Shown: in pieces, positions 51,342 through 57,090 of the stretch
How the letters are laid out: every line of letters starts with the position of its first letter
Position numbering within the stretch: position 1 is the first letter of the stretch
Origin: a candidate division WWE3 bacterium RIFOXYC1_FULL_40_10
GTDB taxonomy: Bacteria > Patescibacteriota > WWE3 > UBA101185 > UBA10185
Assembly: GCA_001773215.1 (NCBI GenBank)
Contig: MEWB01000001.1
Coordinates: forward strand, 69,964 to 133,963
Length of the DNA stretch: 64,000 bases
Direction of reading: 5' to 3'
The notes under the pieces: generated by a model
What the model was told of the DNA's origin: nothing
The model's database searches: none
The model's input: the letters and a program-made list of their open reading frames with translations, nothing else
Position numbers and translations under genes: made by a program

Positions 51342-52115
51342 GTGTATATAAAACTGCCTTTTATTAACCGTATAGTTGTAGCATCGCTAATTTGTGTGGT
51401 CAGTACTGCGGTTGTTTCGGCTCTTTCTGAATTTACTGCTGTCTCATTAAACACTGAGAATAATTCCGGGGAAGTTGGGAGCATTGTTTCCTATATTGAC
51501 GGAAAATATATGCTCTCATCAAGGGAATATGATGAAGGAATGTTTGGTGTAATTGTTGACGCTCCAGCAACCTACCTAATTGATAGAAATTTAATCTCCC
51601 CACATTTAGTTGCATCTTTTGGTGAGATTAAGACTAAAGTGTCAGGAAATAAGGGCCCAATAGTACCGGGTGATTATGTGACAAGTTCTGATATTCCTGG
51701 AGTAGGGGTTAGGGCAGAACAAGCCGGTTATGTTTTGGGTGTAGCGACATCTGAGTTTACTCCGAATAGTCCCGATGAAATTGGGGAAGTCTTTGTCTTG
51801 GTTGATGTAAAAGTTAATTTTCTTGCTCGTGGGGTGTCAAAGAACATAATAGACACTGTTCAAAAGGCATTTGCCTCTCCCTTTATGACTCCAATAGCTG
51901 CACTTAGGTATTTGCTTGCGTCTTTGATTTTTTTGGTGTCGTTGGCCATAGGCTTTAATTCGTTCGGCAAAGTTTCTGGAACTAGTATGGAAGCCTTAGG
52001 AAGAAATCCTTTGGCAGGGGGGTCTATAAAGAGGATGTTATTTTTCAATTACTTACTCACTTTTGTAATTATGTTTGTAGGTCTAGTAATCGCGTACTTA
52101 ATTATCTCAGTATAA
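51342..52115 (+). CDS. Hypothetical membrane protein whose C-terminal ~75 aa form an F-type ATPase c-subunit-like helical hairpin lacking the ion-binding carboxylate; N-terminal ~180 aa are an unrelated signal-anchored soluble domain
   Basis: C-terminus [57 protein letters not shown] versus canonical c: G-rich helix 1, the R-Q/N-P loop, helix 2. Helix 2 has no D or E. The gene sits in the operon position normally held by atpB/atpE. The start codon is uncertain. Confidence 0.5.
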
Positions 52116-52133
52116 CCTGTTACAATTATTTGT

Positions 52134-52739
52134 ATGAACCTGCCCTTAATAGTGTTACTCATAATACTTGGATCAGCCTTGGTTTTAGCGTTATTTTTTT
52201 TGGTAGTTGATCTATTTCTATTCAAAAAAGAATCTCCTACCGAGCTCAACTCTTCGCTAAAGGTTATTGAAAATGCAAAAATAAAGTCTTTGCAAATAAT
52301 TACGAGTGCTTATGAGGATGCCAGAAAAAATATGAGGGTTTCTGACACCATCGGTAAAGAGGCTAAGACAGAGATGGAAGATATCCTTGAGAGGTCTTTT
52401 GAAAAGATGATCGTGACACTTGATACAGTAGGGGGGAATGTCATAAACAACTATCAAGCCACACTCAATAAGTCCCTTGATGTAGCGGCCATACAACTTG
52501 AGAAAAAAATGGAGGAAGCTACACACACTATTTCATCACATGTTACCGATAGTTATGAAAGGGGGGAGGAGGCAGTTGCGGACTTTGTAAAAAAGCGCAC
52601 AAGAGAAGCTGCGGCTCGGATTAGCTCAGAGTTACCACGCGTCATTGAGGAGTACCTATCTGAGAATCTAACGCTTGAAGTTAAGGAGGAAATAATTATG
52701 CGCATGGTAGAGGAGCGTCTCAAAAAGGTTGGTCTATGA
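52134..52739 (+). CDS. atpF: F-type ATPase subunit b-like (single N-terminal TM plus long charged helix)
   Basis: 201 aa. TM LIVLLIILGSALVLALFFLVV then an extended E/K-rich helix. Operon position; ATGA overlap with the next gene. Confidence 0.55.
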   Translation: MNLPLIVLLIILGSALVLALFFLVVDLFLFKKESPTELNSSLKVIENAKIKSLQIITSAYEDARKNMRVSDTIGKEAKTEMEDILERSFEKMIVTLDTVGGNVINNYQATLNKSLDVAAIQLEKKMEEATHTISSHVTDSYERGEEAVADFVKKRTREAAARISSELPRVIEEYLSENLTLEVKEEIIMRMVEERLKKVGL

Positions 52740-53122
52740 AATCCGAGTATAGTGAGATACTAGTAAATTTTAAGACTACTTCAAGATTGTGGGAACATAT
52801 AAAGATGCTTGAGGCCCATTACACTGGAACTTCCCTACAACACAAACCCGATGCTAAATTTATCGACGGGCTGAGACAATATATGAGTAGAGTACCTGTA
52901 ATTCACTTCGCCTGTAGTTTTGAGGTTAGTGAGCGGTTTATCAATCGTTTATACGACTTGATAACAGGGAGATTAGCCAGTGACCTTGTTATTGATGTTC
53001 AACCACTGTTGTGCAAAGGGCTGAAATTTGGTCTGGTATATGACGGGAAAATAGTGGAAGGATCCTTTGGGGATATTTTGGCTGATAAATTGGAACTTAG
53101 TATAGGGGGTATAGGGGAATGA
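52736..53122 (+). CDS. atpH: F-type ATPase delta (OSCP)-like subunit, short (128 aa)
   Basis: C-terminal block DVQPLLCKGLKFGLVYDGKIVEGSFGDILADKLE resembles the conserved delta C-terminus (VDPSLIGG...IDGSV). The N-terminal domain is shortened. Confidence 0.5.
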   Translation: MKSEYSEILVNFKTTSRLWEHIKMLEAHYTGTSLQHKPDAKFIDGLRQYMSRVPVIHFACSFEVSERFINRLYDLITGRLASDLVIDVQPLLCKGLKFGLVYDGKIVEGSFGDILADKLELSIGGIGE

Positions 53123-54591: not shown

Positions 54592-55456
54592 TGCCTTGCC
54601 AGTTTATTTACAGCAAATAGTTACTTTGGGTGACATGATTAATTCATATCAAGAAATAGCATCCATGTTTACCCGAAAAGTTAAAAACGGTGTACTAAAA
54701 AGGACCGAATTCTTCACAGGTCTTACTCAGTTATATCACCGTACTTTATTAAACAATATGACATATTCAGGTATGCTAAAGGATTCTAGTAATAGAAAAA
54801 TAGCTACAAGGGCTGGTACTATGATGCTGTGTATAACATCGAACGCAGGATTATACGGAGAGGTTATAAGGGATACCTTTAACACCTTTAGTAGGAAACT
54901 GGACGAATCTCTAAGAGCAGGACGTACCCCTTCGGTTGTGATTGCGGGGCGACTAGGTGCAAGAATGTTTGAATTTTCATACCCTTCCATGCCCTACCAT
55001 TACATAGACATCTCTGATAGGGATACAACTATCACTGTGACAAGGGAGTTAAAAAAGTTAATAGAGGGTTATGCGGAAGTCATAGTTTTTTATAGTGTAT
55101 TTGTTGGGATAACTGAGCAGAAGCCTTCTTCCCTTTCATTAGTTTCGGGAGTGGATTCAATTAAAGATCAGGAGTCGGATTCAGGTGAAAGAAGCTACAT
55201 ATTTGAACCTTCTGTGGCAGAAGTGAATAACTATTTTGAGTCCCAGATTTTGAGTCTTTTGTTAGATCAGGTAGTTTCAGAGAACAACCTTAGCAAAAAC
55301 GCTTCCCGAATGATCAGCTTAGATAGGGCGTCGCAACGGATTGATGTTAGAGTCAATTCACTTCGGCAAAGGATTAGACTGGAGGCTCACAAGGCTAGAA
55401 GCTATGGTATTTGTCAGAATATAATTTATTCTAAAAGGGCTAAAATAAAAATATGA
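54572..55456 (+). CDS. atpG: F-type ATPase gamma subunit
   Basis: ~294 aa. N- and C-terminal coiled-coil helices. C-terminal [13 protein letters not shown] resembles the gamma ARMVAMKAATDNA region. Located between the alpha and beta genes. Confidence 0.65.
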
Positions 55457-56829
55457 ATGGCACAGTAATTGAAGTTAAGTATCCAATAGTACTGATTGAG
55501 TTCACAACAGGGGAGCTGCCTTCGTTATATGAAGTGTTAGAATCTTCAGGGGATGTACATATTGAAGTGCTCGTGATATCTGTTGGTGCAGGTAGTGTGT
55601 ACTACTGTCAAAGCCTTGAGGGCCTAACTACTGAAATAAAGAGAGGGATGATCTTCACCAGAACCCAAAGAACCCTCTCAATATCCTTAAGCGAGGCTGT
55701 GCTAGGAAGAGTAATTGACTGCTTTGGAAATCCGATTGATGGAAAAGGAGCTCTACCCGTAGAAGGGGTTGCGCTTCCTATTTTATCAAATAAGCCCGTA
55801 GTAGATTCGATGGATCAAACCTCCGTGCTTGAAACAGGGATTAAAGTAGTAGATCTGATGTGTCCCATCATTAAAGGAGGAAAAGTAGGGCTTTTTGGAG
55901 GATCTGGGGTAGGTAAAACAATCCTATTAAACGAAATAATGCATAATATACTGACGGAGGGTAACAAAGATACCGTATCTGTGTTTTGTGGAGTGGGGGA
56001 GAGGAGTAGAGAAGGTCATGAGCTGGTAGAGGAACTCGATCATGGCGGCATTCTCCCACTAACTTCGCTAGTGTATGGCTCGATGGGGGCCAGTCCGGTG
56101 TTGCGATACTTAACGGCATATTCAGGGGTTACTATAGCAGAGTACTTTAGGGATCATCTAAAGAAGAATGTTATGTTTTTTATTGACAATATGTTCAGAT
56201 TTGCCCAAGCCGGAAGTGAGGTATCTTTACTAATGGGCAATATTCCCTCAGAGGAAGGCTACCAGCCTACACTAATCTCTGAAATAGCCGACATTCATGA
56301 AAGACTACTAAGCAGTCACGATAAATATCTCACCACAATCGAGGCAGTGTATCTGCCCGAGGATGACCTTTATGACCCTGCCTCTCAAACTGTATTTGGC
56401 TATATAGATTCCAGCATAGTCTTATCCAGGGCAGTATACGGAGAAGGAAAATTGCCTGCAGTAGATATTTTAGCCTCTACCTCGGATGCATTAAGCAAGA
56501 AAATCGTAACAGAGGAGCACTTAGAGGTGGCAATAAGGGCTAAAAGATTGCTGACGCAGGCAGAAGTGCTTGAAAGGATATCCTCTTTGGTAGGAGAGGC
56601 TGAATTATCAGAAGATGATAGGATAACACTACAAAGAGCCCACAAAGTTAGGAATTTTCTTACCCAGAATTTTTATGTGTCTGGGCAGCAGACTGGGAGA
56701 AAAGGTGTAACTGTACAGCTAAAAGATACTATAAAGGGTGTTAAAGGGATAATAGATGGTACTTTCGATGCAATTTCGGAGGATAAATTTTTGTATATCG
56801 AGACCGCGGAAGGGCTTCTCGGCGATTAA
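55453..56829 (+). CDS. atpD: F-type ATPase beta subunit
   Basis: Walker [16 protein letters not shown]. Catalytic core. C-terminal [26 protein letters not shown] aligns with the beta DELSEED region. Confidence 0.9.
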
Positions 56830-57090
56830 ATGTATAAAAGCAAGACAAACTTTTTATCAGTTATCGTTAAGGACCGACAGGGAGTTGTATTTGATGGTAC
56901 TGCAGCCTCTGTCAGTTCTAAGAATACCTTGGGAACTTTTGATATCTTAAGCGGACACGCTAATTTCATCACTCTCATCTCGGGTTTTCTTATTGTCGAT
57001 AAGGGCAAATTATCTGAGAAAACGATTACACTTGAAAAGGGTATACTGTCAGTTTATGAAAATGCTGTAACCGTATATCTTGGGATTTAA
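56830..57090 (+). CDS. atpC: F-type ATPase epsilon subunit, beta-sandwich domain only (86 aa)
   Basis: LSVIVKDRQGVVFDGTAASVSSKNTLGTFDILSGHANFITLI matches the epsilon N-terminal domain. There is no C-terminal helical hairpin. Confidence 0.65.
   Translation: MYKSKTNFLSVIVKDRQGVVFDGTAASVSSKNTLGTFDILSGHANFITLISGFLIVDKGKLSEKTITLEKGILSVYENAVTVYLGI

Follow-up and report, generated by a model that had tools for sequence, protein, structure and literature searches.

A clade-wide F-type ATPase variant in WWE3 bacteria and their relatives, with a carboxylate-less c-subunit homologue and no subunit a gene in cis

The operon with its F1 and stalk genes

The candidate division WWE3 bacterium RIFOXYC1_FULL_40_10 (Katanobacteria, Candidate Phyla Radiation, CPR) carries a compact ATPase operon at positions 51342-57090 (+ strand) of the 64,000-nucleotide stretch of DNA that was analyzed here and is called the window in the following. 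Its seven genes, in the order X-b-delta-alpha-gamma-beta-epsilon, are listed together with further features in Table 1. A first-pass annotation had read this order and a series of ATGA-type start/stop overlaps from the sequence alone. All seven open reading frames (ORFs) lie where they had been called, the order is kept in approximately 70 other species, and 4-nt ATGA overlaps are present at the b/delta, delta/alpha and gamma/beta junctions. Alpha and gamma overlap by 20 nt, beta and epsilon abut, and 18 nt separate X from b. Both flanks are occupied by oppositely oriented genes, a 1799-amino-acid (aa) ORF upstream and rplA-rplK-nusG-secE downstream, which leaves no space for a hidden atpB or atpE at the ends of the operon. 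The NCBI protein A3K34_00620 matches X at 100% identity, and since other, independent assemblies of this organism carry the same protein and operon, an assembly artefact was excluded. We conclude with high confidence that the operon represents a clade-wide F-type ATPase variant with intact F1 motifs, a b/delta stalk and a carboxylate-less, c-like X bearing an ectodomain, and with no subunit a encoded in cis.

Table 1. Coordinates of the ATPase genes, the domains of X and the upstream features in the window.
Feature	Position	Strand	Description
Gene X	51342-52115	+	257 aa, GTG start
X signal peptide	residues 1-29 (51342-51428)	+	hydrophobic helix 7-25, then Ala-x-Ser/Ala-type site
X extracytoplasmic all-beta domain	residues 32-159 (51435-51818)	+	AlphaFold2 (AF2)
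X linker	between beta domain and hairpin	+	flexible, low AF2 confidence
X c-subunit-like helical hairpin	residues 184-257 (51891-52112)	+	helices 184-221 and 223-256; loop R221-N222-P223
b-like	52134-52739	+	201 aa; single N-terminal transmembrane (TM) helix, then long helical stretch (TM prediction)
Delta/OSCP-like	52736-53122	+	128 aa
Alpha	53119-54591	+	490 aa; divergent F1 alpha
Gamma	54572-55456	+	294 aa; divergent F1 gamma
Beta	55453-56829	+	458 aa; F1 beta
Epsilon	56830-57090	+	86 aa; beta-sandwich domain alone
Divergent intergenic/promoter region between giant gene and X	51202-51341	.	140 bp
Giant MerR/S74 protein	45802-51201	-	1799 aa, head-to-head with X
Second giant	35922-45773	-	3283 aa; one N-terminal TM helix, seven Laminin_G_3 (concanavalin-like lectin) domains

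The F1 head was recognized by Pfam in all of its parts, with PF00006 matched by alpha at 7.9e-59 and by beta at 8.3e-65, PF00231 by gamma at 5.6e-22, and PF02823 by epsilon at 4.4e-10 over residues 12-82 (N-domain). The catalytic motifs of alpha and beta align with their E. coli counterparts and are intact: GGSGVGKT (Walker A), GERSREG (catalytic), FFIDNMFRF (Walker B) and ELSEDD in beta, and GDRNTGKT (Walker A) and SVTRVG (Arg finger) in alpha. However, all four F1 subunits scored under the NCBIfam equivalog cut-offs. Alpha reached 314-346 bits with the atpA models (cut-offs 484-554), beta 436.9 bits with TIGR01039 (462.85), gamma 54.9 bits with TIGR01146 (194) and epsilon 39 bits (67), and the identity to E. 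coli is 33% for alpha (AtpA) and 39% for beta (AtpD). The description of alpha, beta and gamma as canonical by motif thus stands for the catalytic motifs, but not for the proteins at the level of equivalog families or sequence identity. Epsilon ends without the C-terminal helical (inhibitory) domain, compared with 139 aa in E. coli epsilon, and is short family-wide (median ORF of 88 aa in 63 related loci). In canonical bacterial enzymes, this C-terminal domain inhibits hydrolysis. The N-terminal extension of alpha is short throughout the family as well (~16 aa). A comparison of its length with the loss of b and delta was uninformative, as it measures ~14-18 aa in species with and without these two genes alike.

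For the peripheral stalk, the window copies of X, b-like and delta-like gave no Pfam match as single sequences, and the latter two gave no significant NCBIfam match either. Family alignments were assembled from the positional counterparts in related loci, A2 for the delta-like and A3 for the b-like gene. The A2 profile matched OSCP/delta chains of solved ATP synthases (PDB) at an E-value of 2.9e-7, and the delta C-terminal motif LDI....I.GG......G.Y.D.SL is visible in the alignment. PF00213 (OSCP) was matched by 23 of the 30 delta-like family members, the best at 2e-10, and the window copy is not among them. At 128 aa versus ~160 aa in its relatives, this copy is ~30-40 residues shorter at the N-terminus. 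The A3 profile matched solved ATP synthase b subunits at E-values from 8e-7 to 2e-3, and Pfam ATP-synt_B was reached by no single b-like family member. The position of the b-like gene between X and delta is conserved, and the A3 hidden Markov model (HMM) matched 74 of 86 sources. The family-profile matches argue that both genes encode real, divergent stalk subunits, so the initial assignment of b and delta proved sound.

Gene X and the search for an ion path

The AF2 model of X was built with a 32-sequence alignment and reached a mean predicted local distance difference test (pLDDT) score of 88.4. The hairpin adopts a c-like fold of two helices with a polar R-N-P loop and is superposable on c subunits (PF00137 superfamily), and the fold of the ectodomain matches the phi29 gp12 autochaperone. 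NCBIfam subunit C was matched by X weakly (E 0.005). Among 32 X family members, Pfam assigned ATP-synt_C (PF00137) to five, the XM1_gp53 minor capsid family to eight and Phage_cement_2 to three. X is a c-subunit homologue in the atpE position with a secreted N-terminal phage-cement-like domain and, unlike in the capsid cement and decoration proteins of phages or in phi29 gp12, this domain is fused to a rotary-ATPase membrane hairpin. Of the earlier proposal that X replaces both atpB and atpE, the second half is accordingly retained, whereas atpB is simply absent and not replaced. The signal peptide and the positive-inside pattern of K210, R221, K230 and R231 would place the beta domain outside the cell and the R-N-P loop in the cytoplasm, which is the orientation of a c subunit.

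Column statistics were obtained for 262 X family members aligned to the family HMM. R221-N222-P223 is invariant (262/262), and 236 of the 262 members have E217, at the same distance of four residues ahead of the Arg as its counterpart in E. coli c. In canonical enzymes, the cytoplasmic R-N-P-type loop of c contacts gamma and epsilon. The carboxylate of E. coli c sits 18 residues past the loop Pro (P43 to D61), and the equivalent positions in X are 240-242. Here, the family has Thr, then Ile/Phe/Leu/Val, then Val/Ala, and Asp and Glu are absent from the six commonest residues at each of the three positions. The carboxylate-free hairpin that had been noticed in the window copy is thereby established across the family. 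The sole conserved polar residues of the outer helix are N236 and T240, and the N236 column contains N in 226 members, H in 21, S in 10, E in three and Q in two. Judged by helical periodicity, the two residues would lie on a side of the helix that is rotated by ~100-140 degrees from that of the canonical carboxylate, and they may be packing contacts.

A subunit a was searched for in the window and around X in other genomes. Apart from X, no ORF of the operon has more than one TM helix. No match to ATP-synt_A (PF00119) was obtained among 10 window ORFs, which included all multi-pass membrane ORFs, or among 43 multi-pass ORFs from ~80 related loci (each with at least four predicted TM helices and 140-420 aa, within +/-10 kb of X), most of which are ComEC or a Peptidase_M50 neighbor. 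Likewise, tblastn with E. coli AtpB and AtpE returned nothing in the window or in 85 loci. The absence of an a-subunit gene from the operon, as first reported, was therefore confirmed and holds near X in related loci as well. A conserved downstream protein of 200 aa and five TM helices (59069-59671, + strand), located beyond rplA-rplK-nusG-secE, was considered as a cryptic a subunit and rejected because it is a Peptidase_M50-like protein with an HExxH motif (HEFSHA). This family makes up 26 of the 43 multi-pass ORFs, and in many loci a member follows epsilon at a distance of ~2 kb.

Kantor et al. (2013) described a closed WWE3 genome in which the presumed a, b and c subunits had no homology to known subunits; the putative c was common to OP11/WWE3 genomes, and its function and ion specificity were left open (PMC3812714). 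With these three upstream genes re-assigned as c-like (X), b and delta, no gene is left for subunit a. In the literature that we searched, the anomaly is mentioned only in these two sentences of Kantor et al. (PMC3812714) and was apparently not followed up. We found no earlier account there of how X is built from its domains, of the lack of the carboxylate throughout the family, of the re-assignment that leaves no a, of the clade distribution or of the conserved giant-protein neighbor.

Clade distribution and genomic neighborhood

A scan of 185,579 species-representative genomes, one per GTDB species, found relatives of X in 390, with the labels WWE3, Woese-, Levy- and Amesbacteria, and 664 representatives clustered at 50% identity matched X at E<=1e-30. 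For a comparison of gene order, 80 loci were fetched and four contigs were looked up, which gave 81 distinct loci from other genomes (locus numbers L004 and L085 denote the same one). This comparison with related ATPase loci had been proposed beforehand, and it returned the same order, X followed by alpha-gamma-beta-epsilon, in 70 of the 81. The gap between X and alpha holds a ~240-aa b-like gene with one or two TM helices and a ~160-aa soluble delta-like gene, and a multi-pass protein in none of the loci. In three species, X abuts alpha with no b or delta in between, namely in the closed Woesebacteria genome CP066686.1 (L004/L085), in L077 and in L079, so F1 and X can occur without the stalk. 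Three further loci (L040, L047 and L057) have X and b-like with no F1 within 6-10 kb, which indicates that X and b travel together even without a nearby F1, and X stands by itself in L005.

Insertions between X and b-like were observed as well. The Woesebacteria-labelled locus P0072 (JGI 3300078620) carries a 567-aa cofactor-independent phosphoglycerate mutase (PF01676/PF06415) at this site, and a 373-579-aa ORF, recognized by position, is found there in L056, L062, L073-L075, L078, L081 and L083. Many public records of metagenome-assembled genomes (L006-L008, L010, L012, L058, L067, L071-L074, L077, L078, L080, L081 and L084) bear the title 'uncultured Candidatus Saccharibacteria', 'Gammaproteobacteria' or 'Pseudomonadales'. 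Given the CPR-specific operon, these titles are probably wrong or placeholders.

Upstream of X lies the giant 1799-aa protein, in which Pfam found a MerR-type helix-turn-helix (HTH) at residues 22-58 (1.2e-5) and a Peptidase_S74 domain at residues 1482-1533 (1.6e-11). One TM helix at ~103-131 is followed by a large extracellular region, with the S74 chaperone domain near the C-terminus. A homologue was found divergently upstream of X in 51 of the 73 loci with enough upstream DNA, and in 47 of these 51 it is the N-terminal part of the giant homologue that adjoins X. In the giants of three loci (L021, 3057-3314; L041, 2754-2993; L075, 3059-3331; all on the - strand), a domain is 33-39% identical to the ectodomain of X. 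The shared motif GDYxTSSxxPGxGxKA...GxVxGxALE sits near the C-terminus of these giants, where the window giant has S74, and blastp of X against the two giants of the window itself gave no similarity. The giant MerR-anchored protein is possibly a functional or regulatory partner or client of the ATPase. As a regulator, it would be an unusual case of a MerR-type protein that is tethered to the membrane and lies divergent from the operon it controls. The 3283-aa gene, directly downstream of the 1799-aa gene and on the same strand, probably encodes a second surface/adhesion protein.

In the 140-bp stretch that separates X from the giant gene, an exact direct repeat, ACTATATCAATGT, occurs at 51222-51234 and 51270-51282, with the copies 48 bp apart. 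As a conserved operator, this repeat was rejected, since a crude check showed no comparable exact repeat of at least 11 nt in most of 16 related intergenic regions. Promoter-like hexamers on both strands of 51202-51341 were no commoner than in shuffled sequence. Elsewhere in the window, other genes (73-1044, 10479-11192, 15454-17667 and 18981-20602) encode a membrane-anchored PIN-TRAM protein, a sortase, an O-antigen-ligase-like protein with a C-terminal TPR, and a competence pair of ComEA-like (HHH_3/SLBB) and ComEC.

Comparison with known rotary ATPases and interpretation

Compared to canonical F1Fo (atpIBEFHAGDC), the operon has the same gene order from c on, and its alpha, beta, gamma, epsilon, delta and b are homologous. 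The alpha3beta3 catalytic motifs, a gamma/epsilon central stalk and a b plus delta/OSCP peripheral stalk are all present, and the hairpin of X keeps the cytoplasmic R-N/Q-P loop with its preceding Glu. In contrast, atpB and atpI are absent, PF00119 subunit a was found neither in the operon nor in the window ORFs or within +/-10 kb of X, and the ring subunit lacks the essential Asp/Glu of c helix 2. Further differences are the ~130-aa secreted N-terminal domain of X, the epsilon without C-domain, a longer b, and the scores of the subunits below the equivalog cut-offs. The N-ATPase (atpDCQRBEFAG) is also a divergent, laterally mobile F-type operon, but it keeps a and a Na+-binding c, has atpQ/atpR and follows another gene order, and the WWE3 alpha and beta scored 294 and 382.4 bits with TIGR03324/TIGR03305 (cut-offs 750.5 and 752). 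Single c-type hairpins without the ion-binding carboxylate are known from Acetobacterium woodii c1 and V-type proteolipids. Those rings, however, always keep other hairpins with a carboxylate and work against an a subunit, whereas for the X family no carboxylate was found at the canonical site and no a subunit near X.

The F1-like X0 ATPases of Mycoplasma are the nearest functional parallel. They are required for extracellular MIB-MIP antibody cleavage (PMC12994834) or for gliding (PMC3369863, PMC11864180). Both the M. mobile gliding motor and the MIB-MIP cluster combine F1-type alpha/beta/gamma/epsilon with a non-Fo membrane part, and neither they nor the WWE3 operon have a recognizable subunit a or a canonical c. 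By its published description (PMC12994834), MMCAP2_0577 of the Mycoplasma X0 combines a signal peptide with extracellular domains and a C-terminal pair of TM helices, which is the topology of X. Both systems occur in genome-reduced, host-dependent bacteria, and the Mycoplasma ATPase serves the cell surface and not bioenergetics. However, the Mycoplasma seven-gene cluster includes a 12-TM protein and has no b or delta (PMC12994834), while the WWE3 operon keeps b/delta and has neither a 12-TM protein nor a counterpart of the 19-kDa cytoplasmic protein found there, and those organisms also keep a normal F1Fo. With the NCBIfam models of the Mycoplasma families (MSC_0618/0619, MMOB1660/1670), the WWE3 alpha and beta reached 347.1 bits for NF045934 (cut-off 570), 238.1 for NF045936 (520), 386.9 for NF045858 (850) and 309.9 for NF045863 (600). 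At scores this far below the cut-offs, the WWE3 operon is not a member of these families.

To our knowledge, every characterized rotary ATPase needs a ring carboxylate together with the arginine and the half-channels of subunit a for ion translocation. Without a ring carboxylate and without the half-channels of a, no canonical ion coupling is expected, and hence the complex should not be an ATP synthase. The conserved F1 motifs, the R-N-P loop, the stalk and the lost inhibitory domain of epsilon together point to an assembled rotor-stator that runs hydrolytically, and the short epsilon in particular fits hydrolysis-only running. We therefore favor, at roughly even credence, a Microgenomates/WWE3-type 'F1-like/X0' ATPase without the usual ion coupling, in which ATP hydrolysis drives a ring of X with its extracellular domains. 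In such a machine, copies of X would form a c-like ring docked to gamma and epsilon, and the complex would run in the hydrolysis direction, with F1 burning ATP. The ATP would serve to rotate the ring of X or to put it under strain, with b/delta as the stator, and mechanical energy would thereby cross the membrane to a crown of extracellular X domains. The candidate client would be the giant MerR-anchored, tail-fibre-like surface protein.

A more far-reaching version, which we consider tentative and rather doubtful, is a new trans-membrane rotary motor. Here, the autochaperone-like crown of the carboxylate-free ring would assemble, tension, rotate or release the giant tail-fibre-like protein outside the cell, where ATP is unavailable. 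The giant protein would presumably attach to or attack hosts, and its MerR-type HTH could relay surface events to the shared promoter.

Several points weigh against the hydrolysis-driven ring of X. Ring formation, docking on gamma and epsilon, and rotation are inferred. The search covered the window and, in other genomes, +/-10 kb around X, so that a distant atpB or atpE may exist in the ~0.9 Mb genome, and the conserved N236 and Thr240 of the outer helix may provide a non-canonical ion site. The connection to the giant protein is one of synteny and could be purely regulatory, because a MerR-type regulator often lies divergent from the genes it controls. Finally, some loci have no b/delta and others no nearby F1, so that a fixed rotor/stator machine does not hold for the whole family, and any mechanism must accommodate these cases.

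Among the alternatives, a conventional ion-coupled F1Fo is unlikely, although the search covered 64 kb of the ~0.9 Mb genome in this organism and +/-10 kb around X in the others. Under this reading, a and perhaps a normal c would be encoded elsewhere, and X would be an extra or minority component of the ring, like in hybrid c rings. Split atp operons occur in alphaproteobacteria and cyanobacteria, and carboxylate-less hairpins take part in the hybrid c ring of A. woodii and in V-type proteolipids. On the other hand, X fills the atpE slot beside b in ~70 species with no small canonical c ORF alongside, and a ring of X alone would give an a subunit nothing to act on. The tblastn and ATP-synt_A searches described above were empty, and no recognizable a or c was reported for the closed WWE3 genome either (PMC3812714).

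We give little probability to an ion pump or synthase with new chemistry, in which N236/T240 would carry the ion and the channels would come from the TM helix of b-like, that of the giant or an unlinked protein. The conserved polar pair, with H in 21 and E in three of the 262 members at N236, would suit this idea, as would the retained stalk, which implies that torque is resisted in the membrane, and the organism needs some means to energize its membrane. However, no rotary ATPase is known to move ions without ring carboxylate and stator arginine, the angular offset of N236/T240 suggests helix packing, and the TM region of b-like has no conserved polar or charged residue. A membrane pyrophosphatase of WWE3 could energize the membrane instead (Kantor et al. 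2013, PMC3812714).

It is similarly improbable that the operon encodes a tethered F1 without mechanical output, with X as an anchor or a co-transcribed unrelated surface protein, and F1 serving hydrolysis or regulation or being a decaying remnant. The high divergence of F1 is compatible with such a fate, and so are the loss of b/delta in L004/L085, L077 and L079 and the four loci that have X without a nearby F1. Against this, F1 has retained every catalytic motif, none of the 262 members departs from the R-N-P coupling loop, and the operon order is kept throughout a deep clade whose genomes are tiny and streamlined. Together, these points indicate strong selection to keep the machine assembled and working, and not decay or futile hydrolysis. 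Lastly, although X alone gives no Pfam match, there is next to no chance that it is a sequencing or annotation artefact in which a frameshift joined a small atpE to an ORF upstream of it. The identical 257-aa protein on independent assemblies, full-length homologues of ~255 aa in hundreds of species and an AF2 model that is confident for both domains all speak against a split of X into separate atpE-like ORFs.

Reviews attribute an 'F-type ATP synthase' to nearly all CPR/Patescibacteria although these lack a respiratory chain, and explain it as a proton pump run in reverse (PMC11665869). This account does not fit the genes of WWE3 and Microgenomates (390 species-representative genomes), where no a lies near the operon and the ring has no proton-binding residue. 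Metabolic reconstructions that score 'complex V present' in these groups are probably wrong on membrane energetics. The operon is a natural experiment on a c ring without subunit a. If the hydrolysis-driven surface motor holds true, it would add to the Mycoplasma F1-like X0 machines a second, independent example of a rotary ATPase re-purposed in a genome-reduced episymbiont, and it would offer a concrete machine behind host interaction in these uncultivated bacteria.

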